In this document: piece after piece, positions 1,570 to 35,984 of the stretch | How the letters are laid out: every line of letters starts with the position of its first letter | Position numbering within the stretch: the first letter of the stretch is position 1 | Notes under the pieces: generated by a model | Databases searched by the model: none | The model's input: only the letters and a program-made list of their open reading frames with translations | Told to the model about the DNA's origin: nothing | Origin: Amoebophrya sp. A120 | Taxonomy: Eukaryota; Protista; Dinoflagellata | Direction: 5' to 3' | DNA: 36,719 bases | Assembly: GCA_905178155.1 (NCBI GenBank) | Contig: CAJINV010000010.1 | Span: 997,837 to 1,034,555, forward strand | Program-made: the position numbers and the translations under genes

Positions 1570-4500
1570 ATGACTGAGGACACGGCCCCTGTGTCTCCTC
1601 CGCCTCCGGTGCTTGATCACGAAAATTCCTCTCCTGGACGAGAGCAGCAGTTTCAGAAAATGGTTACCGATGGTGCAGCAGCTGAAGGAGGTCCTCATGA
1701 TCTTCTGGACGAGATCGTGGCGCAGACCCAGCAGCTGCTGTCTAGTGCCAACATCGAGAAGCCTATGGAGAGAAAAAAGTTTGTCACAGTCACTAACTTG
1801 CAGGTTTTGCACTACAAATTTTCTCAGCATCACAAACTTTCCTTGTGTTGCAGAAACACTAGGGAAATCCCTCATGAAGTTTGGCTGTGATGCATTTTTA
1901 CGCATGACAAGCAATTTTGTATTGCAAGAATGCGCATGAGTGATCGCGACGAACTTTTTTTCCTTGATAAAGCCCCGGCTAACCGCCGACCGCTTGAAGA
2001 AGCCGCCGTTCCTATTGAGAGGAAAAACCCCCCATCCCCATATTGAAAAGGTATGTTTCATCCGAAAATGTGTGTAGTTGCTGATTTGTGACCACAAATC
2101 AGGTTTGTCTTGCACGAAGACAAGTGCAGAGGCATCCGCCCAATTGTGAAGCGATTTGGCACGCTGTTGGTCCTAGATGGTAGCCGTTTGCAATGCTGAG
2201 CAACTAGACCCGAGCGCTGCCACCCAGGCTGCGGATCTGGCAGGAGTGCCGCACTGCAAGACAAGTCGGATTTGTGTACACAAATCAGCAACAGAAATTT
2301 TTATTTTGATATGGGGAGGGGGGATTTTTCATTTTGATAGTTCCGCTTTCTGTTTGATTTTTTGCACGCGCTAATCGAGAAATTCCCGGAAGAGCTCGAG
2401 GACCTCAAGACTTCGCTACCAGTATGCATTGCAAATAGTAATTGCTAATCGTAAGTAGTATTTATTGCAATACAAATAATTAGCTCAGCATGACAGAGGG
2501 AACTTGTCATGCCGATTTACCCTCCTGAGCAAGAGACTTGTCATGCGTGATTGCGATTACATACTTTTGCAATGCATAACCAGGAGGGGGCAGCAACTCG
2601 TCGCAGCCCCAGCTTCCGAACAGCAAGCAAGAGAAGTGCGATTGGCTCGACGCGTGGATCATTGCGGTCATGCAAGCGATATGCATTGCAAAAGTATCGT
2701 ACTCGTATGAATGCATTACAAATTTCCTCAGCATGAGAAAGAAAAATTGTAATGCGGATTTACCTTAACAGCAAGACTTAGTGCATGTTTGCAATTACTT
2801 TTACTACGAGTGCGATACTTTTGCACAGGATAAGCGAGCGCGGACCGGAACCCCTTCGAACCGCCCTCCTCGTTGAAAGTGGTATGCGGGCAGGAGGCGG
2901 AAAAGACAAATTTGCTGTTGCAGAGAACCTGGGACATGTGCGTCCGGAACAAGGAAGAGCTGAACAAGCCCATACCAGCAGGTATACTTGTAAGTGTAAG
3001 TGTATCGGGCAAGTAAAGGCGGAACAGCTGCGGCTTTGAGTTAAGTATTTTCATGCTGCAGCCAGCAGAAGTAACTACACCACACATGATACAGTGTCGT
3101 ACGAGCAATTCGTAATTCTTATACCAAACAATTTCAGATGACTTCTCCGCCGCATTGGCGACCATGACCACGTACAACCAGAAATGGCTGAACAGCAAAG
3201 AGTATCCACTGCAAAAAATAGAAACCCGGGAGGTCTGGCGGAGATGACTTGCGATGGTGCGTAGTCGTGGACGATGACCAAATCTTTATGTCTTCGGGAA
3301 AGTGGTCAGCCTAGCATGGGAAGACACGCCGTTCTTGGCACGGTTTCGCATGTAGTGCAGCGCGTTGATATTACACTGCATGAAGACATCAAAGGCAGCT
3401 GTGCTTCTGTTGGTCGTTACGCACAACAACCCAAAAAATTTCACATATAGCACCATACCGTGCAAGAGGACTAACACAGTGGAAGTTCTACCAGTCTCCA
3501 GGGCCAGCCTTGTACATATTTGCAATGCATAACAAGTACGAGAAAGTGCAGAAGATCGAGATGCCGGTAGATCTGGACGATGAGAACAGCGAAGAGGAAA
3601 TCGAGCATTTGGACAACGAGGACGATCATATGATCCAAGAAAAAAACTGTGCTGATGCGTCTTAGAGTTGTATTAGCATGACAAACTTGTTGCCCCACAT
3701 GACAGATAAAGTTTGTCATGCACAACGAGTTTAACTACGTGATGAAAACACACATGAAAACAAGAGGATATCATGGATGTCTGGCATGACAAGTGTGATT
3801 GTTTTGCTTTTTCTGCATGACAGACTTTGACTTATACTTACACAGCTTTTTTCATGCATAGACCACACGAAGACACTAGAAATAGATCCGGACAGAATCA
3901 TCGCGGAAGAAGACTCAGACGGGGAGATTTTGACAAAAGAGGAGCGTGTGCGGAAACAAGCCAGGGAAGATTTGCAGAAGGATGAGCGGTTCGCGAAAGT
4001 GCAAAACCTGTTGGACGAAATGGACGCGGTTCTCGGTTCGGACGACGATGACGGGAGGAATAACAGAAACACACGAGCAGGTGGGTCACAACAGAGTAGA
4101 ACTACTGGGTCAACATCTTTACCACACAGCCAGGTCGCGGCACCAGCAGCACCACTAGACCACAACAACTCCCCGCACCTGATGATGAATCGCAAACTGC
4201 ACCAGCAGGAAGCCGCCAGCTTCGCCCAGCGCCCGGAGAGCCGGGGGGAGCGGCTGCGACCGAGCAACCAAATGCAAGCGTATTTCCAGCAGCAGCAGCA
4301 GCAGATGGGGCACCACCTCCAGAGTGGTCAAAATATTGTGCAGAGTCGGATGGGAGGAGCCACACCAGCAGCATACGAAGACAACAATTCCTATGGAAGC
4401 GTCAGGATTGAAATCGTCAGAGTTGAAATAGTTTGTGATGCATAAAACGCAACCCACAAAAGGCCTGTCTTGCAGAGTAGGCAAGTTAGGCAGATTGTAA

Positions 4501-7500
4501 GCCTGTTGAGGGGTAGAAATATTAGAGCTGCTAAAGTAGCATCACAAAAGGCGCCTTCCTTACCCAAACAGCATGACAAACTGGATTTCGGTTCTACCCA
4601 GATTTGTCATGCGCCACTTGAAAACTAGGGGCCAACTGGTATTCGTTTTATGCATTACAAATTGTTTCAACTTTGTCGAGTTCAATCCTGACACTCCCAT
4701 AATTCCAAACTGCGGCCGTACGAGGGGAGCAGCTCTTCCGGATCCGGCTCGGAGTCGGAAATCTCCGACGCAGAGTCGTCACCAGAGCGGATGCGGCGGC
4801 CGACGCAACCACGTGGTAAAAACAACTATCCGGGGTCCTCGCTCGATTCCGAAGGACTGTCTTCCGCCTCGCCAGCCGCAAGGGGAACAAGAAACGAAGC
4901 GCGCAATAACAATAAGTTCCCGAAATCAAGAACAGCGGGCGGCGGGAAAAACGGCGCACGGATGATCACATCTATTAGTATTGGTTTTTCTCGATAAACC
5001 TAAGTGTTGGCCTAAGTGAATCCTAAGTAAAACCGAAGTAGTCCCTAAGTCTTTTTCCGGACTCGTGGCCGACGCAGAACCGCGGGAAAGTGGACCGGAA
5101 GAGGGCTCCAGCGGAAAGGAAAATCCCGCGGAAGCAAAACAAATTGGGGCGTATCGGCGCGGTGCAGGTACGTTCCGGCGGGCAAGATTATTGGGACCTG
5201 CTTAAAGAGAAAAAATAACAAGCGGCGTCCTGTTTGGCCGCGCAATGCAGGGGAAAATGCCGCGGGGACATGAAAAAAAGAGCCGGGGCACGAAAAAACT
5301 CGCGAAACTAGCCAAAAAACAAAAGGCGCGCGCAGCGTGGAGGGTGCTCCGCGCGGCTTTGCGGGCGACCGTCGGAGCTTGTGGATGCGTCGCGCGCTGC
5401 CCCGCCGGCGCCCCCGGCGCTTTCCGCCTGGAAGCCATTCTGTGGCGCTTTTTTGTGTCGAAAATAGCAAAAAGGGTCGCAGACTGAAGAAAAAAACTCG
5501 CAAACTCAAGAAAAAAGGTGGCAAACTGAAGAAGAAAAGTCGCAAGCTGAAGAAAAAAAGTTGCAAACTGAAGAAAAAAGGTGGCAACCTGAAGAAAAAA
5601 AGGCGGCGGCGGAGGGGCGCAAGGTACGGGGGCGCTTGCCGGGCGGCCTCGACAAGAGCCCGCGGACGCCGCCGCCACGGGGCCCCGCCCCCGGGGGGCG
5701 CCGAGGCGGGCGGGCCGGAGCCGTGTTCTGGCAGCCCTCCCGCCCGGGCCGCCTTCCGCGTTTTTTTTTTGGCGTTTTCGCCTTTTTTTTTCCGCAAAAA
5801 CGACAAAGCGGAAAGTGAATGGGTGCCTGTGGCACTCGGCAAAAACAGGAAGGCGGGTGGCGGAGTTCGGCCCGCAGCCCTCTGCAGCCAGCGGGACACA
5901 CGCCGCCAGGGGCCCTGCGCCGGGACGGCCCCGCGGGTGCGTGGGTTTCCCGCCGACGCGAACCCAGCATGGCCGCCGAAGGGGGCCGCGGCCGCTTCTT
6001 TTTTGTTCGCCCCGGCTTTTTTTTGCTGATTTTGCAGAAAAACTGCCCAGAAACGGGAAAAAAAGGGGCACCCCAGGCCCCCCGAAAGCCCAGGCGCCCG
6101 GGGTGCCGGCCCCGCCAAAGAAGGCGGAGAGACCATTTCGCGCTTTTTTTTGCCGTTTTCGCAGTTTTTTTTCGCGTTTTGCAGCTTTTTTTGCGGTGTT
6201 TTGCATATTCTGTTGCGTTTTGCCGGTTTTCATTCGAGTTGTTTCCCCCCAGCCAATGGCAGGCGAACTTTTTCTCCAACAATTGGCGGGAGGAAACTCG
6301 GCCGAAAATCGGGAAAATGCAAAAAAAAAAAGCAAAACGCGGAAAAAACCAGCAAAAAACGCGAAAAAAAGCTGCAAAACGCGAAAAAAAACTGCGAAAA
6401 CGGCAAAAAAAGCGCGAGGCGGTCTCTTGAAATTCCACAAGCAGCGCGCGCCTGTTCCACGTCGCAGCCAGGCGGAACCTGGTTGCCACCTAGGAAGCCG
6501 AAGCTGGCTGGGGCCTCCGTCGAATTGGGTGCAAAAATTGGAAGTGGAAGTCTCCGGCAAAGTCGAAACCGGGAGAAAAAATCTCCGGCAAAAGTTGGAA
6601 ATCCGGAAAACCCTAAGTGAGAGCTTGAGTGGGACCTAAGTGAAACCTAAGTCAGACCTAAGTCAAACCTAAGTCAAACCTAAGTGAATCCGCATGGTAT
6701 GGCCTAAGTTTCACTTAGGTTTCACTTAGGTTTCACTTAGGTTCCACTTAGGTTTCACTTAGGTTTCACTTAGGTTTCACTTAGGTTTCACTTAGGTTTC
6801 ACTTAGGTTTCACTTAGGTTTCACTTAGGGTTCCACTTAGGGGCTCACTTTTTTCACTTAGGTTTCATTTAGGTTTCACTTAGGTTCCACTTAGGTTCGA
6901 CTTAGGTTCCACTTAGGTCTCACCTAGGTTTTTCCGAATTTTCCAGCTTTTCCCGGAGATTTTGCCTTCCATTTTCGACTTTGCCGGAGATCTTTCCTTC
7001 CACTTTTTACTTCCAGCTCGACGGAGGTTTGACGCAGGCGCCAGCTTCCGCTTCCTAGGTAGCAACCAGACTTCGCCTGGCTGCGATGTAGAACAGGCGC
7101 GCGCTGCTTGTGCAATTCCGAGACTTTTTTTACCATTTTCGCAGTTTTTTTCTGCAAAACCGGAGAAAATAATCGCGAAAACAAAAAAACCTACGCGGGC
7201 GCCGGGGCCCCGTCAGCTTTCCGGATTTAATGTCGTGGCCTTTTTGGATTGTGGATTTTTGCGCGCGCGCCACATTTTTTGGCGTAAAAACCGAAAAAAA
7301 AGTGCTAAAAACCGAACAAAAAGCGCTAAATCGAAGAAAAAAACGGCGCCACGGCAAAATTGCTGAGACCCGCGGGGGCTTTGTGTTTTTGGCGTTTGCA
7401 ATTTTTACCCGCGCGGCCGGCGCCGCGGGCGGGGCGGGCAGCCGTTTGACCCTCCGGGGCCCCGCTGGGCTAGGTTTTGCATGTGGCCAGTTGGTTTTTT

Positions 7501-10500
7501 TTTGTGTGTTTTGCGATTTTTTTTCGCGTTTTGCCGCTTTGTTTGCTGTGTTTTGCATATTTTTTTCGTGCTTTGCCGGTTTTCAATCGAGCTGGCCCCC
7601 CCCCTCAGCCAATGGCAGGCGAACTTGTTCCCCAACAATTGGCGGGAGAAAACTCGACCGGGAACCGGGAGAACACCAAAAAAAGCAGCAAAACGCGAAA
7701 AAAAGCTGCAAAACGCGAAAAATGGCAAGTGCCCAGCTTGCGACGGGGCCGCTTTTGTTTTTCTTCCGCGAACGGGCCCTGGAGCCTTTCCAACTTTCCC
7801 AAACAAGAGGAAAAGTCGCAAAAGTTTCAGCGTCCGTTCGTGGGGGAAGAATGCAGCTGGCTGCGACCGTAGTGCCACTGTGTATACGGCGTCGGGCGGC
7901 GGCAGTAGGTGGGCAGCCGGTTTGTTCTCTCTCCCGCAGGCGGGTGTTGGGGCGCTATTTTGCAACTTTTCCAGAAGGGGGTGGAAAAGTCGCAACAGTT
8001 CCAGCCCGCCCGCGCGGGGGAAAGAACAAAATGGCTGCGGCCGTAGTGCCAACTTGTAAGCGCTGGCTGCCACACGACGGCACTACGTGGGCAGCCATTT
8101 TGTTCTTTCTCCCGCAAGGAGGGGCTGGGGCTTTTGCAAATTTCCCAAAAGCAAGAGTAGCAAACGGCCCAGCTCTTCTCTAGTGCAAACGCCGCGCAAA
8201 GAATCGCATCGCGCGGCGTCTCTTTTCCTTCTTTTCCCCGCTATGTCGCTGATTCGTAGGCGCGATTTTGCGTCGGGCCATTGTCGCGAAATTCATTTGT
8301 GTTGGGTCTAGTCTAAGCTGGTTGGCATGTTGGAAAGAAGACCGATGGAAATGCGCAGAACGCATCAAAATGCCATCGGTCTACGTATGGCAATCCAAAA
8401 TAATCAGAACAGAATCCAGATACTAAGCGGCTTTTGAAGCGAAACACGAGGGGAGTACACTTAGGAATCACTTAGGTCAAATAGTCCTTTATTGAGAAAG
8501 TCCACTAGTAACATCTAGTACTAGTTCCGCGCATGACGCAACAACTTTTGGTGCGCCGGGCGACGACGATTTTTCGGAGGAATCTGACCACGGGAACGAG
8601 ATCGTCTTGTCCGACGACGAGAGACGGAAGAAAAAAAAGAAGGAAAAACAACGGCAGCAAAACGTCGGCCAAAAATTTCCGCAAGCGAGAAGTGAAAATA
8701 AACACCAGCGGGCGCGCATGGTGGCAGAGCCGATTGTCACGATAGCGGACGCGAACGAGCAGGAAGAAAAAGAGCTTATGCACTGCAAGAGCATCGTATT
8801 GGTATTAGTATAAATTGCATCACAAATTTAGCTCAGCATGAAAAATTGAATTTTTCATGCTAAATTACCTAGGAAACCAGATTTGTCATGCTAGTCTGGC
8901 ATTTATACGATACTTTTGCACAGGATAGAGCTCTTGGAACAGCAATTGATAGATCTGCAAGTAGATGAACAACATGCGGAGCAAGATTCGTCCGGATTGA
9001 CTTTGAACGAGGATCTATCGCAAGAAAAAACTGTTTCACTGTGAACCTGTGATGCAGAAAATGGAACACAGAACTATTTGTCTTGCTACACCTGCAAGGC
9101 ATTGGATTTCCCCGCGTGTTTTCCCTTGGGAAGTGCGCATGACAAATTTTCAGCGTCATGCGTATACAAACTTGTGATGCAGATCTTGCAAAATCATCAT
9201 AGTGAAACACTTTTTTCGTGGGATAGGACCCAGACACCTCCAACCTAACGATTGCACCGGGAGAGGGGGAAGAAGAGACTTTGGTGTCTTCACCACAAAA
9301 GCAGCTGCAAGGGAACAACAAACAAGGACACCAGAACTTGAAGCACATCGAGTCGGAGCCCACTAACGTCGGCACAGATGTTGGAGAAGATGCTCTTGCT
9401 AGTGCAGCAGACTATGAAGAAGTAGAGAACTGTGTTGACGGCACCTCTCCGGGCGGGGGACACCGACAACGAGCAAAACAACAAGGCGATGAACAAGAAA
9501 ACAACGCACCGCCAGAAGACGAAGAGCAGCAGCTACAGCAGCTCGACCTCGCGAGTTTAACCATCAGCTCAACGGTGAAAACCATTTCCGAAGAGGCTGT
9601 CACCCGCTACGCAGGGGAACAGTTTCTCAACCAGCTACGACAAAATCTGGAAAACTACGTGACTTTTGTCGCAAACGCGCCGGTATCAAATGCGAATATG
9701 TCTGGGTCTGGAAGCGTTGTGCCAACTTGTCATGTTAAATCTGGATGATGCGAAAATCTGTGTTGCGTAAAAATGACCAATAGCTGTGCATTTTGGACCA
9801 TGTTGAGAGGGAGTTTCTCATGCAGGGTAGGCATGATACAGATCTTACAGAATCTGTCATGCTAGTTCCTGCATTCGAGACCTCACGCGTCATGGAAAAC
9901 TTGCATGACAGGTCTTGCATTCCGTCGCAGCCGTCCCAGACGTCCCAGACGCTGTTGTGTTTGTCTTTCGATAGAAATCGCGTTGTCCAGAGATTTCTTC
10001 TAGAGTTTACCGAGTATGTGGCTACAGTTTGTAGGAATAGTTTACGAGGGGACGCCCAGCCCTTAGCCTTCCAACATGACAGGTCTTGCATTCATCTTCC
10101 AAACCCAGACAAATATTTGCATTTGATAGCCGGCCAGCAGCCTGGTGAAGCAGGTGCAGCTGGTTGAGAAAAATAATGGAAATGAGGAGGAGGATGAGGA
10201 AGAAACAGATAAAACCCCGGAGCAAAGATTTTACCAGCAGGCCGTCGTGGTGTCTATGTTTCAGCAGATTCTTCTCGGTTTACAATTGCACACACGGTTG
10301 TTGAGCTCATCTGGTGGAGCCGAGCAACAAGAAATGATCACGGAAGTAATCGCAGGTTCTTTGTCGGAGTTCGGACTGGTGGAGGAGTTGAAAGAAAAAG
10401 CGCTTGCGAGTTCCTCTTCTCCCGATGGTGCTGGTTTAGTGGACCAGCAACTTGGTACAGCAATTAGAACAACTTCTTCGCTGCTGCATTATCAAATGTA

Positions 10501-20058: not shown

Positions 20059-23000
20059 ATGGCAGAAACAAGGAGGCCCGCCTCGACGTCCCCAGAAGCG
20101 GAAGAGGAAGTTAGCGGATCGCAGGAGGACGAGCAGCAGGCCAGGAGCAGAACGCATGAACGGAGTGGAGCAGAGACGCAGAACTATAGCTCGAGCGTTG
20201 TTCTGTCCGGAGAGGACGAGGTGCTCCCCGAGGAAGAAGATCCGTCACAGGGAGGTAATGTTAATGTTTCTGGAACAAATCAAAACAAGTGCCGGTTTTG
20301 TCTCTCTGGCGAGGAGGATGGGGAGTTGTTCACGCCCTGCGGCTATCAAATGTAAAAATGTCTGGGTCTGGAAGAATGCATGTTTGTCATACTTGTCTGG
20401 CATGACTATTAAATCTGTCATGCACGTTGCCCAAGAGCCGCATTTTTCTGCCATGCGGAGACGCAATTTGTCATGCAGAATAGGCAACACCTACAAGCTC
20501 AGAAATTTGTCATGCTGAGCCAGCACTTGTGGCCTCTTCATGCTACGCCACTCAGCATCACAAGTTTCCAGATCCAGACATTTTTGCAGTTGATAGCGGC
20601 TGCCTCGGAAGCAGCAAGTACGTGCACCTGCACTGTCTCCGCGCGTGGCAGCGCACGGTCCAGCTCCAGATGCGCGACGACGGGCCGGCCGCGGGTCGTG
20701 CAGAAGGCCGGGGAGGGGGCAACGCTGCGGCCGGGGAGAGGGAAAACGAAAATGACGCGAACATCAATGTGGGGCCAGGAACTACTCCTGGAGAGGAGCC
20801 ACGACCCCGGGAACAAGAGGTAGAAGAGCAGAACAAGGAACAGCGGCACGAGAGATGCTCGCTCTGTCTGCAAAAGTTTCAGCCCGGATTTGAGCCCCTG
20901 TCGCGGTCTATCAAATGCAAATATGTCTGGGTCTGGAAGAATGCAAAACTTGTCATGCGAATTTTACGTGACCCACACCCATGACGCCTGTAATGCATAA
21001 TATAGCATCGCAGATTTTTAGAGGGCTTCCTGATCCCTATTGCGTATGAGAAACAAATGCCCTCTCAATGTAGCACAAACTGGACCCCTCTTGCTGGGTA
21101 TGCAATACAGATTTTTTGAGAGTGAAGAGACACCATCACAAGTTGCATCCTTCCAGACCCAGACATATTTGCAATGCATACGGTCGGAGTTTCTGCAAGA
21201 CCTGTGTAAGAAAACAGAGCAGGACTTCGACATCGGGACGCTGTTCGTACACGAGCGGGAGCGGGGTAGGAATTTGAGGCTGCAGTCATTGCCGTTCATG
21301 CTGCGGGTCATTGTGGAAATGAAGCACCAGCACTTCCGGAACGCGTGTTACCTATTAGTTATCAAATGTAAAAATGTCTGGGTCTGGAAGAATGCAACTT
21401 GTCATGCTAAATCTGAAGCATGTAAAAATCTGTGTTGGATGTGCATGATTACCAAAAGTCGCCCAGTTTTGACCAAGTCGGGAGGGAGTTTCTCACGCAG
21501 GATAGGCATGAGAAAGATCGCACAGAATCTGTCATGCTAGGTCCTGCATTCCAGACCTCATGGGTCATGGAAAATCTGCATGACAAATCTCACATTCTTC
21601 CAGACCCAGACATTTTTACACTTGATATTAGTGGATGAGGAGCAAAATGAGGCGGAAAGCAGTACGCCCGTGGGGACAAAAACTACCACGATTGGGAACA
21701 ACGTCGATAAAACTAGTGAACGCGCGAAGCGAAAGGTGATCGGTTTTAACTTGGTACGCCCGATCTCCCTGACGCCGGACGAATTATCCTGAGAAAGAAG
21801 TGTCACAGTTCAGTTGCGCACTCTGACCGAAGACAAGCAAGACAGACAACCTATGTCATGCAGGAAATGCTTGCCAGCCTGCCTCATTTCATTCTTGTTT
21901 TCGCTTATAGTCTCCTGCGCATCACAGGTTTTCTTTGCCATGTCGAGCAACTTTGTGATGCAGAAACTCCAACAGGTGTGTAACTGTAACACTTTGTTCC
22001 TGTGATACGAATGGAACCTGAAATACTCGTCGCTCCGGGACTTCATCAGCGAAAAACCCAGCATCAAGGTCTACGTGCTGGCTATCGCAAGAAAAAACTG
22101 TTTCACTGTGAATTTGTGATGCAGAAAATGGAACACAGAACTCTTTGCCTTGCTACACCTGCAAGGCGTTGGATTTTCAAGCGGGTTTTCCCTTGGGAAG
22201 CGCGCATGACAAATTTTCAGTGTCATGCGTAGAAAATTGTGATGCAGATCCTGCAAAGTCATCACAGTGAACCAGTTTTTTCGTGGGATACTGGCCGGCG
22301 GCCCCTGCCATCCACGGGCCGCGAAGGGACTGGCTGTTTTAGACCGGGAATTGCTGCAGGCTGAGTTCAACAAGTTTGGTCTACATGGTGCGGGCGGGGG
22401 ACGAGGAGAGAACTCCACCTCGTCCTTTCGGCAACAAATCGTGCTGAAACAGTTATTGGACTATTTTGTAGTCGATAATATAGGTCCTGTTCCACCTGCA
22501 CCGGCGGAGCAGGGAGTAGGAGTGGAGAAGATACGCATTGGAAATTTTTTTTATATATATGTCTGGGTTTGTTTTGTGTGGAATATTGCAAGACACTTCT
22601 AAAATTGCTGGGCTCGTCGCAGGACCACACTGGATTCTGTGATGCGTGTTTCTGCGCATGATCCGCATGAGAGCATGAAAATTTTCCAGACCCAAACATA
22701 GAATTTGCGTTCGATAGAAAAAAGATGCTGCTCCAGCTAGTAGTTCTACGTCTTCGAGCGCTTCCACTCGCGGCGAGGCGGGCGGTGAACAAAGCTGCAG
22801 CTCCGAAACAAGAACTGTAAAAATATCTTCCTCGCCGTCCTTGTGTACTTCAACTTCTAAGGAAGAACCCACGTCGTCGTCGTCGTTGTGGTCCTCCACC
22901 CACGGCCCGCGCGGTTGGATCCCGTGCAAGGCCATTGCCGCAATCACAGAAGCAGCAGGGCGGGAGCGAGGTTTTCCATCTCCAGAGGAGATACATGAAA

Positions 23001-23695: not shown

Positions 23696-24526
23696 ACTTG
23701 TGAATGTATTATTAAATAGTTCTAACACATCGCTCACGATCATCTGGAATTTTGAACCGCCGATGAAATAAGAACCCGGAAGAACAAGAAGATCATGCTG
23801 CTAGTTCTTCATTGCGCGGACATATTTTCAGGTAGTAGCCAAGAAGATCGAAGATGCGCGGGACCACGGACGAGTGTCAGCACCAAACTGGAACAAATCC
23901 GCATGATTTCATCTATTGTGACGTTGAGTTCTTGTTGCAAGATCCTACGCCGCGCCCTGGTTTTTCGAGCGGGTGGAGGCGATGAGAACACCTACTTTTT
24001 CGACCGTTGTTTCTGGGATTCTTTTCTGTCCTTGAGTGAGAGAGACGCCAGTTTATAATTTTGTGTGCAGTTTTCGTTTTGTAAGTTGTTCTGTTTCTTT
24101 CCTTTCTCTGAGGGAGGCCTGCTTGACGGGAGAGAGAAAGGTTTGCGCATGCAGCTCTGCTAAAAGGTTCCTAGAGCGACGCTGAGGTAGGTAGAGGGAG
24201 ATAGCACTTTAACCTGCGTTGTTTCCTGCCTTCTATTTACAGAGTTGTGAATCTTCCTCCTGTCCAGCTAAATCGATGGAGTACTATAAATTTTTTTTCC
24301 TTCTTCCATTGTTCAACGCACATCCGAAATTTTTTTTGATTCAAGTACTTGCAGCACCCACACTTAAATGAACGAGTAGTGACGTTTAATATTTCGTCGT
24401 GTGTGCTTGTACTGCCGCAAAGAAACTACAAATAGCAGGCGCCAAGCTTTGTCGAGCAAGAGCTCGTCTTTTGCGCACCCCGCGGCTGCCCTACTCGACG
24501 GTGGCCACGTTATTTGAGGACATATA

Positions 24527-25217
24527 CTAGCCAACAATGCTCGCCTCCCTCTTCGCCGTTTCTTTCAACGACTGCTTCGTCGGGTTCCTCCTCGTGAAGC
24601 TAACCATGCTGCTGTATCAAAATGAAAAATCCCTCTCCCCAACATATCAAAACGGAAATTTGCGATGCTGATTTGTGACCACAAATCAGCTTTGTATTGC
24701 AGAGAGGCACTGCGGCCAGATCCCCGGGCTAGGTAGGGGCGTATGGGTCTAGTAGTTCAGCATGGCAAACGGCCCCCCTTTAGGCCCACCAGCATGACAA
24801 ATCGCTTCCATAATGGGGCGGAGGCTTCTGCCCTTGTCTTCTTGCAAGACAGACGTGATCTGTGTCCTCAAATCTGCAACGCAAATTCTTGGAAACATAC
24901 CGTTTCAATATGGGGAGGGGGGATTTTTCCTCTCAGTATGTTGATGTGTGAAGCGCGGAAAAGTTTGCGGCTCCCGGACGCCCGAGTCAGGAAATTGTTG
25001 TGGGACAGTTGCTATCCCGTGCAAAAGTATCGTGCTAGTATGAATTGCATCACTAATTCGCTCAAGTACAGAATTTCAATTTGTCATGCTACTTTGGGTA
25101 GAAAGTTGGGTTTGTAATGCATGCTCGCAATCACTACGAGTACGATGCTTTTGCACTGCATAGTTGCTTGTCACTTCGGGACTCACCGCCGATAATGTAG
25201 TACGTCGTGAACATCAT
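24527..25217 (-). CDS. Small two-intron hypothetical gene (~68 aa); strand uncertain
   Basis: Removing elements 24615-24938 and 25013-25162 (+5 bp each) gives MMFTTYYIIGGESRSDKQLSHNNFLTRASGSRKLF..EASIVG* on the minus strand. A 59-aa plus-strand frame (24537-25200) is also open. No recognisable motif. Confidence 0.4.
24615..24938. mobile_element. Introner family C, 324 bp
   Basis: DR TGCTG/TGTTG; reverse orientation relative to the copy at 2013. Confidence 0.9.
25013..25162. mobile_element. Introner family A, 150 bp
   Basis: DR GTTGC/GTTGC; family A TIRs. Confidence 0.92.
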
Positions 25218-25396
25218 TATATCAACTTCTACACGAGCTGCCGCTCATTTTCAACGAACTCTCTCTCTGCAGGAGACACGCACACGGCCGCATCTTATTC
25301 GCGACAGGTAGTTGTGCCCCGCGCACCAAGTAATTAAAAGACAGCAAAAATCGGGTGAAGACGATATTACGTCGGAAATAAAAGTAAAACAACCAC

Positions 25397-28300
25397 ATGA
25401 CGACTGGCGCAGCGGTAAAACAATCAGAGTTTCCATCTGTGATGTCGGGGAAAAGGTACGATGAACATCCACTCCCGGCGGACCAGAACGTGGTCATTGG
25501 AAGGGTAATCACGACGAGCGGGCTCCTCATCGACGGCAGAGCAGCTAGTACAGGAAACGACAAAAACTACTCCCATAGCACTACCACGACCGCTTTGGGC
25601 AGCAGCGCACACGAGAATCGCAAAATGAGTTCAACACCTACTACAGCTAGAAGGACGAAGGAGAAGCTGTATCAGGCCTCCCTCGGATATATGCATTGCA
25701 AAAATGTCTGGGTCTGGAAGGATGCAAGGTCTGTCATGCTTGTCTGGCATGAGTAAAGAGCTTGCAATGCGTGTCCAAGAAAAGACTCTTTTGCTTGTCA
25801 TGCAAAAACGCAGTTTGTCATGCGAAAACTGCAACACAAAGCCTCGCAAATTTTTTCTCATGCTTGCCTGTGCATTAGACAGCATTCACGTATTCACAGC
25901 CCAGCATTACAAGTGTCCAGACCCAGACATATTGGCATTTGATAAGCAACGCCGTGTCCTTCGCGTTTTTCGCTTGTTGGGTGCGGTTTCTCACCCTGTA
26001 CTTCCTTTCCATATCCTGCTCGGCCAGCCAGATCGGGCTGCTCGTGTCATCCGGGAAACTGACCACCATGCTGACCGGCCCCATCGGCGCTTACCTGGCA
26101 GACAAATCACGGGAGGCGAAGCTGGTTTTGCTGTTTTCCATCGGGTTTAGCATGCTGAGTTTCGCAGCAATCCCCCTGACGGTGGTGGACGCGAGCCAAA
26201 GTTTCTATCCGGAGCACTTAGAATTATACCGACACCGTACTAATTTATTTTACAATTTCAACTCTGCTATACAGTTACATCAGAAACATACAGTCAAGAA
26301 GTTTTGGGTAAAAATATTGCGCATGACATCAACAAGTCCGGAGTTGTCGGTAGATACGTTTTTCAACGGCACACTATCGGCACCTTGTTCTTTCTCTATG
26401 TGACCTTCAACATCCTCCGGGCGCCGCAGGGTTCGCTTTTGGACGCTCTGATTCTTGAAATGTCGGAAAAAGATAGGGATGTGTGGTCGAAGAGCCGCAT
26501 GTGGGGCGCAATCAGCTGGGGCGCGACACACGTGGTGCTTGGGTTCATGCTAAGCCATTCAAACGGAAGCTTTCTTCCGATGTGGGGTGGGTATCAGGTA
26601 TAGATATGGAAGATTTCTAACTCGATCTGTGATGTGTGTACTAACTTCTACTGAAAATAACCTCTTTATTAATAAACAAACAGCTAATTGGCCTGCTTTT
26701 TCTCTATACGGGCAAGAAACTGTTCCCAAAACACGCGGGGAAGGATATCAAAAGACAAAAATCCCACCTCCCCATATCGAAAACGAAATTTGTGATGCTG
26801 TATTTGAGTACACCAATCGATTTGTAATGCTAGAAGGCCAAGCACCGCAGTTGTGGCCTCGTTTGCAGGCAATTTGTCATGCTGTTTCCCACTTCCAGCT
26901 GCCTCCTTTCGTGCTAAAGATGCAAGGCCTTGTTCCCTTCCCACGACACCCAGAACTACAGTCCGCATCTTTTCCCTTCTAGCATAACAAAGCTGGTCTG
27001 TGGCCACAAATCTGCATCACAGATTTCCTTTTGGATATGGGGTGGGGGGATTTTTCTTGTTCATAAAGGACTCGGCTCCGGTGAACTACGACCTCCTGAC
27101 CCAAATGGTGAAACAGCGGAAAGTATGCATTGCAAAAGTATCGTACTCGTTGTAATTGCATGCCCGCATTACAAATTTTTTTCTTAAGTTGAATCCGCAT
27201 TACAAATTTCATTTCTCATGCTGAGAAAATTTGTGATGCAATTCATACTAGTACGATGCTTTTGCACTGCATAGAAAGTCTTTTTTCTCAATCTGACCAT
27301 GATTGGCGGGGGGTTTTCGCTCGTGGAAGCCATGTTGTTTCTCGCGTTAGATGAATTGAACGCGACTCCGCTCCTGTATAACCTGCTCAGGTGATACACT
27401 CTCAAACGTTACAATAGAATCTGGAATTTGTGTTGCAAGAATTGCATACTCTAGCCAACTCTCATAGGACGATTGCGCATGACAAGTTCTGGAGTCCTAA
27501 TCCTCACTACAATCTGGCGAAATTTGTATTGCAGAAAGTGGAATGGTCTGCGAGTCTGTCATGCTCATTATGCAGGACAAATCCCAGACTCTATTGTAAC
27601 GTTTGAGATTGTATCGTTTGAGCAGGTCATATCCTGTGCGGCATGAGTGTTTTGACCACGGTGATTTTCGAGCTACCGATTTTCTACTACGGGGAATACC
27701 TGCTCGAAACGCCTATGGACTGCAAATATGTCTGGGTCCTCTGGGGGATTGCGAGGTTTGTCATGCTAGTCTGGCATGACTCTGAGTTCTGTATTGCGTT
27801 GCCGCAAAGAGCTCCTCTTGCCTGTCATGCAAAAACGCAGTTTCTATTTCTAATGCGGGGCACGCAACTCAGAACCACGGAAAAACTTGTCATGCTTGGC
27901 AGTGCATTACAGTGTACTCACTGCAGTTCCATCAATTGCATCACAAGTAGTTTCCAGACCCAGTCCCAGACATATTTGCATTTGATAACGCTCGGTGCGA
28001 AGCAAATGATCCTCCTCGGACAAGCCGCTTGGGTGTTCCGCGCCATCTTCTACGCCTGGATGCTATCAACTGCAAATATGTCTGGGTCTGGAAGGAACCT
28101 GTGATGCTGTGTTGCGCATGACTGCAACTACGCTTGCAATTGCAGCCGAGCATGACAAACTTTCGGACCGCTTTCTGCTGCCTGACGCGCATTACAAAAT
28201 GCGTTTTTGCCTAACAAGGGAAGCTGCTGCTCACTTGTTGCTCATGCAACACAGATTTTCCAGGAATGCAAGGCACGCAAGACAAGTTCCACCTTTTCAG

Positions 28301-29534
28301 ACCCAGGCGTATTTGCAATGCATAGATGCCCAAGGCGGACTACGTGCTGCTCGTGGAACCGCTTCACGTATCGTGAGAAAAAAGTGTTACAGTTACACGC
28401 TCTGATGCAAGATAGCAAGACAGACAACCTCTGTCATGCAGGAAATGCCAGCCAGCCTCATTTCGTTCGTGTTTTCCCTTATAGTCTGCGCATCACAAGT
28501 TTTGCTTGCCATGCAGAGCAACTTTGTCATGCTGAAACTCCAACAAATGTGTAACTGTATACACTTTTTTCCTGTGATATCACGGCGTCACCTTCGCCCT
28601 GGTGTTCATCGCGGCCGTCCAGGAGACGAACAAACTCGCTCCAGACGGCATGAAATCCTCCGCGCAGGCGGTGTTGGGATTTACCTTCGGAGGTATAGGT
28701 CCTTGCGTCGTCGTTTTCCTCGGGGGCCTGTTGTTTGACTGGATCGGCTATGCATTGCAAATCTGTCTAGGTCTGGGTACTTGTGATGCAAGCAAGGGAA
28801 GACGAAGAGCGAGCGCACTGTTGTAATGTGCTCCCCAGCATGACAAGTTTTTCCGTGGTTCAGAGTTGCGTACTGCGCATGAGAAACTCCGTTTTTACAT
28901 GACAGACGAGAGGAGCCCTTCCCGGGCACGCAATACACAGTTCAGAGTCATGCCAGACTAGCATGTTGACAAATCTCGCAATCTCCCAGACCCAGACATA
29001 TTTGCATTTGATATCGGCTACAAAAAATCGTTTTTCGGGTTCGCGATACTGGTGCTGGCGAGCATGGGCGTGTATTACTTCGCGAGAGAGGAGGAAAACG
29101 AAAATGACGTGGAAATAGGACGAGCAATACCCGTAGCTGTCGAAAGTGCGGAAAGCGCTCTTGAAGATAGCAACATGACTAGTTCATCTCGGCAAGTTGT
29201 GCAACTCGAAGATGCGCAACACCTTCACGGGGGCAGCCACGACTTTGAACTCGAAGTTGAGGAAACCATCGCCAGTCCTGCGGTCCGTGAGCGCGGCAGA
29301 GAAGAAGACGATGTCGAATCAATGACCCCGACCAACTTTGGAAAAACTACTTCCGCGAAAAAGAAGCACCAAAATAAACTACAGCAACAACAGCACCTCG
29401 TCCGCACGACAAGCAGCGGGGTGAAGGCGAGTTACCAAAGAGCGGACTCGTCAAGTCCGGAGAAAGAGTTGTACGATAACAGGAGGGGCGGTAGGACATC
29501 ACCAGGTGGAGAAGGTACAACTAGTGTGGAGTAA
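25397..29534 (+). CDS. Spliced gene, ~627 aa: major facilitator superfamily transporter, MFSD6/MFS_1_like type
   Basis: Exons 25397-25689, 25950-26224, 26362-26597, 26684-26745, 27071-27123, 27279-27376, 27637-27713, 27993-28063, 28330-28368, 28585-28748, 29019-29534, giving a 1884-nt open frame. Many hydrophobic helices; motifs GAYLADK, WSKSRMWGAISWG, FELPIFYYG, VEPLHGVTFAL, APDGMKSSAQA, GGLLFD. Confidence 0.88.
25690..25944. mobile_element. Introner family B, 255 bp
   Basis: Family B TIRs; the DR has decayed (GGATA/AGCAA) but +5 removal restores the frame. Confidence 0.88.
26225..26356. mobile_element. Old, degenerate introner, ~132 bp
   Basis: Residual IR TACCGACA/TGTCGGTA with TA ends; DR decayed (AGAAT/CGTTT); +5 removal restores the frame. 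Boundaries are less certain. Confidence 0.55.
26598..26683 (+). other. Canonical GT-AG intron, 86 bp, with a TACTAAC branch-point-like word at 26639-26645
   Basis: CAG|GTATAG..AAACAG|CTA; phase 0; AT-rich. Confidence 0.85.
26746..27065. mobile_element. Introner family C, 320 bp
   Basis: DR AAGGA/AAGGA; family C TIRs. Confidence 0.92.
27124..27273. mobile_element. Introner family A, 150 bp
   Basis: DR GAAAG/GAAAG; family A TIRs. Confidence 0.93.
27377..27631. mobile_element. Introner family H, 255 bp, ~55-bp TIR
   Basis: TAT.ACCTGCTCA..GATACA.TCTCAAACGTTACAATAGA; DR TCCTG/TCCTG. Confidence 0.92.
27714..27987. mobile_element. Introner family B, 274 bp
   Basis: DR ACGCC/ACGCT; family B TIRs. 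Confidence 0.9.
28064..28324. mobile_element. Introner family B, 261 bp
   Basis: DR GATGC/GATGC; family B TIRs. Confidence 0.92.
28369..28579. mobile_element. Introner family G, 211 bp
   Basis: DR TCACG/TCACG; splits EPLH|G. Confidence 0.92.
28749..29013. mobile_element. Introner family B, 265 bp
   Basis: DR TCGGC/TCGGC; reverse-oriented relative of 27714. Confidence 0.92.
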
Positions 29535-30370
29535 CCTGCTGTTCACCGACTGCACGTGTTATTTGTCCGGTTCAATAGGAGAAGTAGATTCTCGGGCTTT
29601 ATTCTCATCTCATTACCTCTCCACATCCGTCGAAAATATTAAGCGGCTTTCACTTTATTGCTATTCGGCATGTTTGACTTTTTGGACACAAACCGCCCTC
29701 GCGCCCCCCCTCTGAAGTTTTCTATTGAAATTTCAATTTGTGAAAATTTGTTGTCATGCAGTACTTGTACTATTTCCCCTTCGGTAGTACAAGCTAGCAG
29801 ATGAGAGCTTTTCAACAATCCTGGTCCTGTACAATCAGACTCACTCAGATTCTGTTGTTTCGGTTTCATCTGTATCTTCGGAGAATTTCAGCCGTGACCG
29901 CGTACAATGGCAGTGCGTTTTTATCTCGACATCGAAAACGAAAAGAATGGCACCGTTGACCTGATAGTTTCTATTCAGCCTCCCGCCGTGTTTCACAATA
30001 AAGATGAACAAGTCTCATCAACGACAAGTACCTCGGTGCCAACATCTCAAATCAAGTCTTATTTCTGTAGTTTGTGTAGCTTGTTTATGTTTCACAACGC
30101 GATTTCTTGTGGATGGCGATGGTGTCGTCATATTTCCTTCCTTCGGTCGACGGTACACTCTGCTTGAAACTGCCCGGACTTCGTTCTCTTTGATCATTCT
30201 AAAGCTAAGAGTGCAACAAGAGCTAACTACGCTCGACTCGCAGTTGCGGTCACTTCGGTGTTGGCATTCTTATATGCTTCGAACAAACTAAGTAGCATGA
30301 TGTAGTTGCAACAATATTTATTAGAAGACGACTCGTACATCTTTGTCTTTCAAGAGTTGTTTACATCAAG

Positions 30371-32409
30371 ATGGCTCCGCCCGCGACCTCTTCGAAAAAC
30401 TCGGAATGCGTGAAAGTGGTCGTCCGGTGCCGCCCCATGTCCGGCCAAGAGATCCAGGACGGGCGGCAGCAGGTAGTTTTTATGAACGCCAAAATGGGTA
30501 GTGCAACGCTGCTATGCTTTGCAAATATGTCTGGGTCTGGAAGAGTGCAGAGTTTGTCATGCGCGTCAGCCAAGCGTCCCAGTTTTCTGTCATGCGGAAG
30601 CGCAGTTTGCCATGCAGAACGGGCAACACCTAGCAGCTCGAAAACTTGTGATGCGTGGCGACCAATTATTGGGACGTGTCCAAGATTCTTCAGCCAGCAT
30701 CAGAAGTTTCCAGACCCGGACATATTTGCATTTGATAGCTGCAGAAACCGGAGGGGAGCTCGAAGGACAGCAAGGATTTTACCTACGATGCGGTGTACGA
30801 CGCAGAATGTATGCATTGCAAAAGTCTGGATGTCGCACTAGTGGTAATTGCAATACAAATTTGCTCAGCATCAGCCACACAATTTGTATTGCTGCTTCAG
30901 CTCAAGACTGACATGTGTAATGCATGATTGCGATATACTAGTAGCGCGATGTTTTTGCACAGCATAGAAGCCACCCAACAGCAGATTTACGAGGAAACGG
31001 CTTCTTCGATCGTGGAATCTGTATCCAAGAAAAAAACCATGTGAGTGTAAATCTGTGATGCAGAAAGTGCAAACTTGTTCTTGTATACGATTGTCATGCT
31101 AGATGTGCGTCCTAGGCGACTTTGATACAACGTGTTTTCACGTGCTAGTTGCGCGTGACAGGTTTTTTCTGTAATGCAAAGCGAATTTTTGATGCTGCTC
31201 TTCCTTTACAAAGTTACACTTCCACAGTTTTTTTCCTGGATAATCTGTCATGGAGGGCTACAACGGCACGGTGTTATCGCATGCAAAGAAGCATGGAGCA
31301 GGGGTCTGGAAACTTGTGATGCTGATACCTGAATTAGAATAAATTAATTTCAGAGCGGCTGCCTGTACTGTTATTCTTATTCATAATAGCATCAGAAGTT
31401 TTTTAGGCTTGTTGCAGATTCATTCGCAACTACACGCATATGAGATGACAAACACAAGCCGGCATGCAGCACGACAAGAGAAATTAGAAAATGGACAATC
31501 ATATTCATGGATCACAGACCTTGTCGTCCTCCAAACCCAAAGCTCGCAAGAGAAGACAAACCCAGACCAAGACATAATTTTTGCAAATTCCATACTTCTT
31601 CGCCTACGGCCAAACGGGGTCCGGGAAGACACACACCATGGTATTACAACGAAAAATGCCCCCACCCTCGAACTTGAAAGCATTTGTATTGCAAACCTTT
31701 CCAAATGAAACATTCGCCCTCTTGCATGTATCAGCATCACAGATTTCATCCGATCGTGAATAGCAAAAATTTGTATCGGATGTCGATAAATATTACTAAA
31801 CAAATGAGAGTGCGTCCCCGGGCCCCTTGTTGAATCCGCAAAATGCTGCGGGTCGTGCTAATAATTCCTCAACTTTCTCGCGCCCGCTCTTTTTCTCTTG
31901 AGAAGAATGCCCGTCGCGCCCTTCGTTTTTTTTGAGGAGATTCANNNNNNNNNNNNNNNNNNNNNNNNNNNNNNNNNNNNNNNNNNNNNNNNNNNNNNNN
32001 NNNNNNNNNNNNNNNNNNNNNNNNNNNNNNNNNNNNNNNNNNNNTCCTTTCATGCATGACAAAAAGTTTTCATTTGGAAACTTCGCATCACAAATTTTTG
32101 CAACTGTGGGGTGGGGAGCACTTTTCACTGTAATACATGGCCGGCCCGAGTTCCGGCGGGGCGGAGCAGAAGGGATTGCTGCCGAGGGCGTTTGACCACA
32201 TTTTCAACGACATCAAGACCGCAGATATTGGCGTGCGGAACTTTTTGGTGCGGGCGTCTTTTCTGGAGATTTACAACGAGGAAATCCGGGATTTATTGTC
32301 GAAGGTGGACGTGAAGGCGAGATGCGATTTGAAGGAGCACCCGACCAGCGGGGTTTATGTCAAGGACTTGTCCGCATTTGTCGTCAAGGGCGTGGAAGAA
32401 ATACAGCAG
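30371..32409 (+). CDS. Kinesin-2 family (KIF3/KIF17-like) motor, 5' part; the gene continues beyond the window
   Basis: Exons 30371-30512, 30743-30809, 30972-31021, 31248-31274, 31600-31641, 32141-~32409. They read [46 protein letters not shown] (P-loop)..[34 protein letters not shown]. Confidence 0.93.
30513..30737. mobile_element. Introner family B, 225 bp
   Basis: DR GCTGC/GCTGC; family B TIRs. Confidence 0.93.
30810..30966. mobile_element. Introner family A, 157 bp
   Basis: DR GAATG/GAAGC; frame restored. Confidence 0.9.
31022..31242. mobile_element. Introner (D-related TIR), 221 bp
   Basis: TATCCARGAAAAAAA TIR; DR ATCTG/ATCTG. Confidence 0.92.
31275..31594. mobile_element. Degenerate family B-like introner, 320 bp
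   Basis: DR decayed (GGTGT/CTTCT); removal gives GYNGTVFAYGQTG. Confidence 0.85.
31642..32135. mobile_element. Introner (F-related TIR) spanning an assembly gap (Ns at 31945-32044); true length unknown
   Basis: TATTACA..GAAAA.TGC.CCC.ACCC TIR; DR CATGG/CATGG. Confidence 0.88.
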
Positions 32410-32544
32410 GTAATAATTATCGGGTTTTTTCGACCCATATTGAAAAAATGATTTCTGTCGGTACAAATGAGAATGTCTAGGTAGAGGGTGAAGAGTATAG
32501 AAGTCACGAAGACGATAAAGGTAAGGAGTGTAAGCACAATTTCT

Positions 32545-35970: not shown

Positions 35971-35984
35971 GCCGCGTGAACAAG

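Follow-up and report, generated by a model that had tools for sequence, protein, structure and literature searches.

The introners of Amoebophrya sp. A120 are non-canonical repeated introns of ~150–330 bp with short direct repeats and with terminal inverted repeats (TIRs) that begin with TAT, seven nucleotides and AAA; how they are mobilised and spliced was left open, with no U1 and no splice consensus (Farhat et al. 2021, PMC7789003). The text of that paper considered here describes only terminal repeats, and an internal motif, its spacing and a second motif class go unmentioned in it. One A120 TIR introner family has homology to LTR elements and is without Ginger termini (Gozashti et al. 2025, PMC12130899), and this family would fit an integrase-like transposase. 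Internal repeats are described for other TIR elements: the non-autonomous Emigrant/Lemi1 elements carry repeated internal motifs to which a transposase provided in trans binds cooperatively (PMC1636448), and the P element transposase uses 10-bp internal sites at fixed spacings from the TIR that are unequal between the two ends (9 and 21 bp; PMC7776569).

In the window, that is, the whole stretch of 36,719 nucleotides analysed here, the TIR form, the junction direct repeats (a 5-bp target-site duplication, TSD), the removal without GT-AG and the repeated families of the A120 introners are all matched (PMC7789003), and, judged from their sequence, the elements are the introners of Farhat et al. 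or very close kin. They also carry an internal motif of which we found no description in the text of open-access papers or of the Farhat supplement; the elements themselves are already published. Like the Emigrant/Lemi1 MITEs, the elements are non-coding, have a TIR and TSD, and repeat a motif at conserved distances from both ends; unlike there, one motif recurs across families with different inner TIRs and bodies, it covers the whole element, the elements are introns, and binding is putative. As in the P element, the distance from site to end is unequal, differing by one turn between the two ends in several subfamilies (46/37 bp in F2–F4 and 59/48 bp in F6); however, the P element has an 8-bp TSD, perfect 31-bp TIRs and one site per end, as opposed to a 5-bp TSD and 4–9 sites per element here. 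TA..TA termini are shared with the IS3EU/GingerRoot DNA transposons, whose TSD is usually 6 bp (PMC10045372), whereas here it is 5 bp throughout and RNA skips length + 5. Those transposons are further defined by an IS3-like DDE transposase, and no transposase was detected in the ORFs analysed here. The nonconventional introns of Euglena are likewise non-GT-AG, and their signal consists of terminal motifs that pair with each other and lie at a set distance from each junction, but the terminal code is another one and no internal DNA lattice is described in the texts considered (PMC12501133, PMC11282704).

Elements of the window and their ends

We defined 41 elements by TIR and TSD, independently of the motif, with 10 of the 41 coming from relaxed scans of zones picked by eye. 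They are given below with the control elements and a tandem repeat; the strand field is '.' for every element, and the evidence follows the semicolon ("ORF" stands for the arithmetic of a 992-aa open reading frame, "gap" for a contig gap spanning E21–E26).

E1, 1764–1969: group D (F10), 5 strict sites; TIR + 5-bp TSD, 992-aa ORF requires removal
E2, 2013–2339: group A (F6), 2 sites; TIR/TSD, ORF
E3, 2423–2578: group B, 4 sites; TIR/TSD, ORF
E4, 2680–2832: group B (F1), 2 sites; TIR/TSD, ORF
E43, 3203–3531: decayed TAT..ATA element, control, no internal site at PWM ≥8; TIR pair
E5, 3629–3860: group D, 5 sites; relaxed scan, ORF
E6, 4392–4701: group E (F11), 6 sites; TIR/TSD, ORF
E42, 4973–8510: 3,538-bp TA..TA element with 5-bp TSD, without the motif, control; RNA contig joint
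E7, 8777–8927: group B, 2 sites; RNA contigs skip length + 5
E8, 9016–9225: group D (F9), 4 sites, TSD copies unlike each other, the upstream one retained in RNA contigs through position 4; RNA contigs
E9, 9684–10128: group C, 3 sites; RNA contigs
E10, 10490–11238: group C, 3 sites, 487-bp secondary insertion; RNA contigs skip 754 nt exactly
E11, 11308–11635: group A, 3 sites; RNA contigs
E12, 11783–12053: group F (F8), 3 strict sites, all minus strand; RNA contigs
E13, 14563–14717: group B, 2 sites; RNA contigs
E14, 14762–15084: group A, 4 sites; RNA contigs
E15, 15249–16636: 1,388-bp TAT..ATA element within GT-AG intron 15228–16811, control; TIR/TSD
E16, 16862–17161: group E, 4 sites, inverted relative to E6; RNA contigs
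E17, 17203–17364: group B, 4 sites, inverted relative to E13; RNA contigs
E18, 17477–17740: group C (F3), 5 sites; RNA contigs
E19, 18277–18546: group F (F8), 2 strict sites, minus strand; RNA contigs
E20, 18606–18871: group D, right end degenerate, 3 strict sites, upstream TSD copy retained; relaxed scan, RNA contigs
E21, 20344–20595: group C (F3), 4 sites; motif sites, gap
E22, 20909–21180: group C (F0), 3 sites; gap
E23, 21360–21627: group C (F0), 3 sites; gap
E24, 21785–22007: group D (F5), 4 sites; gap
E25, 22083–22290: group D (F9), 4 sites; gap
E26, 22532–22716: degenerate group C, 2 sites; relaxed scan, gap
E27, 24615–24938: group A, 3 sites, inverted relative to E2, E11 and E14; relaxed scan
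E28, 25013–25162: group B, 2 sites; TIR/TSD
E29, 25690–25944: group C (F2), 5 sites, TSD unconserved; relaxed scan
E30, 26746–27065: group A (F16), 5 sites; TIR/TSD
E31, 27124–27273: group B, 3 sites; TIR/TSD
E32, 27377–27631: group G (F20), 4 sites; TIR/TSD
E33, 27714–27987: group C (F2), 6 sites; TIR/TSD
E34, 28064–28324: group C, 6 sites; TIR/TSD
E35, 28369–28579: group D (F5), 4 sites; TIR/TSD
E36, 28749–29013: group C (F2), 3 sites; TIR/TSD
E37, 30513–30737: group C, 3 sites; TIR/TSD
E38, 30810–30966: group B, 3 sites; TIR scan and relaxed scan
E39, 31022–31242: group D (F5), 3 sites; TIR/TSD
E40, 31275–31594: degenerate, group C-like, 1 strict site; ends placed by eye
E41, 31642–32135: group H, 4 sites, crosses assembly gap; TIR/TSD
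70-bp tandem arrays, 33941–34626 and 36215–36719 (feature 33874–36719), strand not given: one-letter motif variant (TGTCACGC, minus strand) in most units

The elements are non-coding, combine a TIR with a TSD and have a high copy number, and such elements supply most of the introns in the genes of this marine parasite. In X5, the contig depth summed over elements exceeds the unique depth by a factor of hundreds to thousands, a figure that is not a copy number. TA(T)..(A)TA termini and the 5-bp TSD are common to every family. In most of them the TIR begins with TAT, seven variable nucleotides and AAA; the exceptions are groups E and G and element E15, where TIR positions 11–15 read TCAGG or TCAAC instead. 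Sorting 351 elements gave 21 subfamilies of 3–71 copies each, and once the motif and TIRs were masked the 21 subfamily consensuses fell into six groups with no link at z>4. The families had been called otherwise unrelated in the initial annotation, which is too strong for their ends, while the bodies show no detectable homology between the six groups.

Enrichment, spacing and conservation of the internal motif

The window contains 155 matches to TGTNWTGC compared to 12.85 ± 3.75 in 100 dinucleotide shuffles (largest 21), and 141 of these lie within the 41 mapped elements (11.9/kb inside vs 0.57/kb outside), where shuffling within elements gives 7.2 matches (maximum 13). All 40 short elements have the motif, 39 with at least two copies and 32 on both strands, and its sites are spread across the whole element, beyond the subtermini. 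By comparison, there are two matches in the 7,631 bp of exon of the window and none in its 438 bp of GT-AG intron. Thus, the initial observation of a motif repeated several times per introner, on both strands and rarely in exons, is borne out. An unbiased k-mer ranking placed TGTCATGC first among 8-mers (31/41 elements), and in a second assembly the motif was present in 307 of 310 elements (147 loci) at a density of 15/kb. The 8-mer first reported is real but incomplete, as the full motif spans ~13 bp, about RAAYYTGT[CGA][AT]TGC[AT]. Two perfect motif sites precede the 70-bp tandem arrays. In viral contigs, the family-C TIR pattern had no match, and the motif-pair pattern picked out seven stretches, none of which had more than one site besides the matched pair; we treated these as chance.

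Spacing from the termini is stereotyped. The first site lies 36–37, 44–49 or 56–59 bp from the element end, and 419 of 492 inward first sites are within these three narrow windows. Distances of sites from the ends have a period of ~10–11 bp. Same-strand pairs of sites at 31–33 bp occur 24 times in 15 subfamily consensuses, as opposed to 3.0 times by permutation (at most 11 in 5,000 permutations), and the spacers inside these pairs are mostly unlike in sequence. The distance windows of this analysis were set after the data had been seen.

The motif is also conserved. In 322 copies, divergence from consensus is 6.1% in the motif core and 18.5% at other body positions, i.e. ~3-fold lower, and terminal branches have 486 core changes where 1,193 are expected from trinucleotide context. 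Together with the fixed spacing, these data support the earlier proposal that the motif is a shared, constrained cis-code. Of the two outcomes named initially as refuting it, a lack of enrichment and an end-to-end alignment of the families with neutral decay, neither was observed. That the motif has no function, and reflects common descent or CpG deamination generating TG/CA-rich words, is consistent with the termini and TSD length common to all families and with the CpG depletion of the elements (observed/expected 0.63; TpG/CpA excess 1.19 with the motif masked). However, the six groups cannot be aligned beyond motif and TIR, the deficit of core changes remains when sequence context is accounted for, and spacing is constant across dissimilar spacers. 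We conclude that conservation and spacing largely refute this explanation, which we regard as very improbable.

A role of the motif in RNA, as a protein site or in stems between the motif and its reverse complement, is in line with predicted folds, where 124 of the 246 sites form pairs with other sites and core bases are paired more often than others (78% vs 62%). However, in subfamilies F7 and F8 the six sites are all on one strand, and because of this motif–motif stems are impossible there, yet ORF-based strand calls place these elements within inferred ORFs in the sense (5) as well as the antisense orientation (7). The same subfamilies speak against the initial suggestion that the motif would work in either orientation by virtue of occurring on both strands. 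Nor did we find the strand specificity of an RNA-level splicing element: the 197 elements with an ORF-based strand call have 557 vs 501 sites (p=0.09), polarised families 28 vs 21 (p=0.39), six elements have only one form of the motif in RNA and eight only the other, and core divergence is near equal on the two RNA strands (6.1% and 6.5%) and equal in both halves. An RNA-level role is, therefore, in our judgement highly unlikely.

Removal from RNA and the control elements

The RNA evidence consists of assembled contigs of one sample, presumed to be RNA. In these contigs, 13 of 13 short elements in 8400–18950 are skipped by length + 5 without GT-AG, i.e. exactly the element plus one 5-bp TSD. 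Removal of E1–E6 and E43 yields the 992-aa ORF, and E21–E26 together explain a contig gap (944 = 944); across E29–E36, the contig arithmetic leaves 259 nt, representing further introns. Of 175 raw RNA reads at the locus in X8, 174 fit only partly, leaving the locus uncovered.

The initial annotation also offered the motif as a mark recruiting the excision machinery. In line with a DNA-level mark whose bound protein licenses co-transcriptional removal of the element, in a cell seemingly without U1 snRNA, each of the 13 short elements examined for RNA joints has two strict sites or more. The three control elements weaken this option. First, the X1 and X2 RNA contigs join 4967 to 8511 (at a loose contig end), an exact skip of E42 for which no GT-AG placement is possible; E42 has one PWM site of the introner motif in 3.5 kb and carries instead a CCTAAGT repeat of its own, which recurs close to either end at a spacing of 11–12 or 22 bp and again in a central array. 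Second, the 487-bp secondary insertion in E10 moves the first site to 530 bp from the left (5′) end, and the element is still spliced; seven further element ends in the loci, one of them in the RPB1 gene, are separated from the body by inserts. Third, E43 has only weak sites (6.1 and 7.0 bits) and its splicing is inferred from ORF arithmetic, as retention gives a stop at aa 219 and removal 992 aa. Thus, the motif is absent from some introns of the class, as seen for E42 by RNA joint and deduced for E43. In E15, strict sites are absent and variants with an ATGC core are confined to the vicinity of its ends; its enclosing intron is skipped as 1,584 nt. Because E42, E10 and E43 point to the paired termini and not the interior, we suggest that the terminal hairpin acts as splice signal; in predicted folds, the TIRs pair in 21 of 21 consensuses in both orientations (19–30 of 30 nt). 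A motif-blind survey for old ORF-restoring TA..TA introns found none, its second version returning 51 candidates vs 154–184 in negative controls.

Changes after insertion bear on the same question. In 20 of 20 subfamilies, the core has fewer private changes per position than TIR positions 17–30, with a ratio of core to TIR 11–30 of 0.54 (95% interval 0.47–0.63). Two or more sites are present in every one of 392 TIR-detected elements with a score of at least 44 of 60, and site density across them is steady at 2.8–2.9 per 100 bp as TSD mismatch climbs from 0.029 to 0.080, so that sites persist where TIRs and TSDs are worn. The deficit and the steady density could reflect selection in the host, i.e. 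a mild post-insertion constraint, as a DNA-level mark would predict; degenerate copies, too, often retain clusters of sites, although these copies were found via the motif and are biased. On the other hand, private core changes amount to 0.029 per site (340/11,794), similar to the post-insertion clock given by TSD mismatch (about 0.03), a rough clock as TSD mismatch does not correlate with body divergence, and conservation is equal in exonic copies and in those without a call (6.3% vs 5.9%). All considered, we find a DNA-level removal mark unlikely. More doubtful still is a variant in which each TA..TA class would have its own helix-phased lattice (TGTCATGC-type in short introners, CCTAAGT-type in E42), the binder of which would both mobilise the element and license its exact co-transcriptional removal, as a maturase-like transposase replacing the missing U1.

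Candidate binders and two proposed codes of an element end

Our working hypothesis, which we consider probable on the basis of this analysis, is that the motif represents putative internal binding sites of the transposition machinery, with the terminal hairpin as splice signal. Specifically, a protein would dock on the motif sites along one face of double-stranded DNA, from where its catalytic domain would reach the TA tip over an integral number of helical turns (36–37, 44–49 or 56–59 bp), much as the P element transposase acts from its internal sites. One transposase, or its DNA-binding partner, may mobilise all families in trans. Because specificity would come from the internal sites, the inner TIR would be free to differ between families as long as it is self-complementary, and removal from RNA would rely on the paired termini. 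Selection on the motif would act mainly during transposition, followed after insertion by erosion at about the neutral rate.

Of the binding proteins proposed initially, a transposase is the best fit, with a host protein kept as a rival. Specifically, the motif may bind a chromatin or architectural protein that is abundant in the host and that the elements have recruited to bend their ends or make them accessible for mobilisation. A motif common to three inner-TIR classes and spanning the whole element would agree with such a protein, as would its one-letter variant in most units of the 70-bp satellite, and helical phasing suits any protein on double-stranded DNA. In addition, A120 is without a reported transposase, the text of Farhat et al. 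considered here reporting putative transposases in A25 only (PMC7789003). We detected no transposase among the 12 ORFs of the window, no transposase family among 77 long ORFs of the loci, no Pfam hit in the nine ORFs of E42, no transposase domain in E15 or E42, and no autonomous element with the same motif in the window or about 0.5 Mb of loci, results that count against the working hypothesis. Against a host protein, site numbers in exons are those of the background, the fixed distance from motif to TA tip suggests a protein that acts on the tip, and E42 follows the same logic with another motif, as expected of lineage-specific transposases. We view a host chromatin protein as rather unlikely.

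If the motif is bound by the transposition machinery, it would explain how many families with different TIRs could use one mobiliser. The motif separates two questions, what moves introners and what splices them, and the trans-acting factor and the autonomous parents could be sought with it, as a defined bait on the DNA side and as a search pattern. If splicing by paired termini holds true, the introner would be a transposon whose end carries two codes: a hairpin that drifts freely and is read in RNA, and a phased internal lattice that is read at the DNA level.

Motif content and family relations of the elements

Open reading frames (ORFs) in this eukaryotic, gene-dense window are interrupted every 30-500 bp by elements of 150-330 bp. 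By searching for inverted ends flanked by direct repeats, supplemented by relaxed scans in chosen zones, we mapped 41 elements (E1-E41) that end in TA(T)..(A)TA and have 5-bp target-site duplications (TSDs), mostly exact, in agreement with the Amoebophrya sp. A120 introner ends described in the text of Farhat et al. (TAT, 7 variable bases, AAA; PMC7789003). The motif TGTNWTGC has 155 matches in the window against 12.85 expected; 141 lie inside elements (11.9/kb versus 0.57/kb outside), where element-wise shuffles predict 7.2. It occurs in 40/40 short elements, in 32 of them on both strands; the window's exons hold 2 matches in 7.6 kb, and its 438 bp of GT-AG intron sequence hold none. The full site approximates RAAYYTGT[CGA][AT]TGC[AT]. 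Scanning one family's terminal inverted repeat (TIR) against a metagenome collection gave 149 stretches in 147 loci totalling 494 kb, and all 80 stretches among the matches listed come from JACKZZ01 contigs. The 147 loci yielded 310 further elements, a set enriched by design for family C, and 307 of these carry the motif, replicating the window result. One family-C element of the second assembly (locus L055, 4001-4972; locus L056, 3060-4031) has a ~700 bp secondary insert and lies inside the RNA polymerase II largest-subunit gene. Exonic insertions are uneven in phase (96, 64 and 61 of 221 calls).

The initial annotation regarded the families as unrelated. This fails at the ends: because TA termini and a 5-bp TSD occur in all families, the data suggest one transposon superfamily. 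It largely holds for the bodies, as only 17/210 pairs among 21 subfamily consensuses reach z>4 after masking of motif and TIRs, leaving six unlinked groups. Positions 11-15 distinguish at least three classes of inner TIR (AAAAA, TCAGG/TCAAC and CACAA). Across all elements, TIR variability is lowest at the terminal TAT and positions 11-12 (about 1-2%) and high at positions 4-10, a profile partly biased by the way elements were detected; this pattern may represent a code with fixed spacing for splicing or cleavage.

The elements are depleted in CpG (observed/expected 0.63, against 1.06 in exons), which hints at element-directed cytosine methylation. Separately, most units of 70-bp tandem arrays (33941-34626 and 36215-36719) contain TGTCACGC (minus strand), a CpG version of the motif, of which TGTCATGC is the deamination product; we speculate that a motif-binding protein may recognise both TpG and methyl-CpG. 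A long interruption (32410-36000), its right end outside the window, contains, in addition to the 70-bp arrays, several dispersed and diverged repeat units, in a gene labelled kinesin-like by its motifs.

Geometry, strand and conservation of the sites

Among inward-pointing first sites, 419/492 lie 36-37, 44-49 or 56-59 bp from the element end. Site-to-end distances are periodic at ~10-11 bp (resultant 0.47-0.55, compared with a null 99th percentile of 0.35-0.40 in the inward set) and same-strand pairs 31-33 bp apart number 24 versus 3.0 by permutation (maximum 11) in 15 non-redundant consensuses, null comparisons that are somewhat flattering given that distance windows were picked after inspection. 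Per-copy counts peak likewise, with 432 same-strand pairs at 31-33 bp; head-to-head pairs cluster at 15-16 and 46-48 bp, tail-to-tail pairs at 16-18 and 34-35 bp, and spacers inside site pairs are mostly dissimilar. Because the spacing corresponds to whole helix turns across unrelated sequence, these data point to a protein bound on one face of double-stranded DNA.

The motif's presence on both strands had been proposed to let it work in either insertion orientation. A codon model assigned gene strand to 197/351 elements, and among these orientation bias was not significant for any subfamily (lowest p=0.059). In subfamilies F7 and F8 all six sites lie on a single strand, yet their copies were called sense in 5 cases and antisense in 7, leaving that proposal unsupported. 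The transcript receives just one motif form in 6 elements and just the other in 8, and the motif is equally well conserved on the two RNA strands and in the two element halves. Because counts and conservation are strand-indifferent and F7 and F8 are one-stranded, an RNA-sequence signal is unlikely, and the motif requires no complementary partner site; we therefore give very little weight to the motif being an RNA element. The TIRs themselves pair in the predicted folds of 21/21 consensuses in either orientation.

In 322 copies with perfect TSDs, difference from consensus is 6.1% in the motif core, 18.5% in the other body and 6.7% at TIR positions 17-30. In trees of 388 copies, the core/other change ratio is 0.25 for internal branches and 0.38 for terminal ones, and the latter have 486 core changes versus 1,193 predicted from trinucleotide context. 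The motif does not drift neutrally among copies. TSD copies differ by 4.3% per site (394 copies) and by 6.9% at third codon positions, implying post-insertion change of ~3%, a rough clock because TSD mismatch is uncorrelated with body divergence. Private core changes (2.9%) fit neutral erosion after insertion by this clock. Against such erosion, the core is kept better than the inner TIR in 20/20 subfamilies and site density stays flat while TIR and TSD wear rises (392 TIR-detected copies). That the motif has no function is highly improbable.

Removal from RNA

Splicing was assessed in contigs of runs X1 and X2 from one sample, guessed to be RNA, in which the elements are skipped. All 13 short elements in 8400-18950 are removed by exactly their length plus 5, among them E9/E10 and E13/E17, pairs in opposite orientation; the GT-AG intron enclosing E15 is likewise removed, and E21-E26 are consistent with removal by contig arithmetic. 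In E8 (9011-9230) and E20 (18601-18876), which have mismatched TSD copies, the upstream copy is retained in RNA through position 4 (n=2), placing the 5' cut at TAT or 1 nt upstream of it and the 3' cut 4-5 nt downstream of ATA.

Control elements in the window
E42, 4973-8510: 3,538-bp TA..TA element with a 5-bp TSD; X1/X2 contigs join 4967 to 8511
E43, 3203-3531: decayed element without a strong internal site; the ORF requires its removal, and it is presumably spliced

The suggestion that the motif marks elements for excision is weakened by three elements. In E10, a 487-bp insert 40 bp from the left end displaces the first site to 530 bp, and excision is still exact; E42 lacks the motif apart from one weight-matrix match in 3.5 kb; and E43 has no strong site. 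A DNA-level licence for splicing is thus possible but doubtful. No GT-AG placement is possible for the 4967/8511 junction, and removal of E42 leaves a 992-aa frame open. E42 is a second element class and a non-canonical 3.5-kb intron, longer than the 1,000-bp limit stated in the text of a published intron survey. It has its own 11-bp-phased repeat, CCTAAGT: 4 copies near the left end and 2 inverted ones near the right, at spacings of 11-12 or 22 bp, plus a central array of 24, with one copy elsewhere in the window; it also has long internal palindromic arms, and its central array switches strand.

The first gene (1570-12178) encodes 992 aa once 14 TA..TA elements and one GT-AG intron are removed; its N-terminus presumably resembles the IFT54/TRAF3IP1 family. 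In a transporter-like gene, a frame shift at 26200-26380 stems from either a 38-nt GT-AG intron or a ~170 bp decayed element with one motif site.

A predicted site for a mobilising protein

A transposase site and a chromatin-protein site had both been put forward. We favor, as the most likely reading and with somewhat better than even confidence, that the motif is the predicted binding site of a mobilising protein. One factor would move families with different inner TIRs by reading the internal lattice and, bound there, would reach the TA tip an integral number of helix turns away, while the TIR, constrained solely to self-complementarity, would act as a hairpin for RNA removal; what we infer here is site binding, the identity of the protein and a splicing role for the hairpin. 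The ORFs examined in the window and loci contained no transposase, and binding by a host chromatin protein is possible, if considerably less probable. Internal transposase sites are a known sort of feature, and there are precedents for the proposed lattice binding by a mobilising protein: Lemi1 proteins bind Emigrant subterminal repeats cooperatively (PMC1636448), and the P element has internal sites at distances of 9 and 21 bp from its TIR (PMC7776569). IS3EU/GingerRoot elements, as described in the text of PMC10045372, share TA..TA ends with the introners here; we do not place the introners there because IS3EU/GingerRoot TSDs are usually 6 bp rather than 5 bp.

Introner elements of Amoebophrya A120 are already published. 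We found no description of the internal motif in the text, figures aside, of Farhat et al. (PMC7789003) and its supplement, nor a mention in the available text of Gozashti et al. 2025 (PMC12130899), the review PMC11282704, PMC12005148 or a dinoflagellate introner preprint (10.1101/2020.10.14.339549); searches of the literature (text outside figures and subscription papers) returned none. What is new is one phased motif that unites many introner TIR classes and is separable from the splice signal, and this phased motif gives a direct means of seeking the mobiliser that is still missing.
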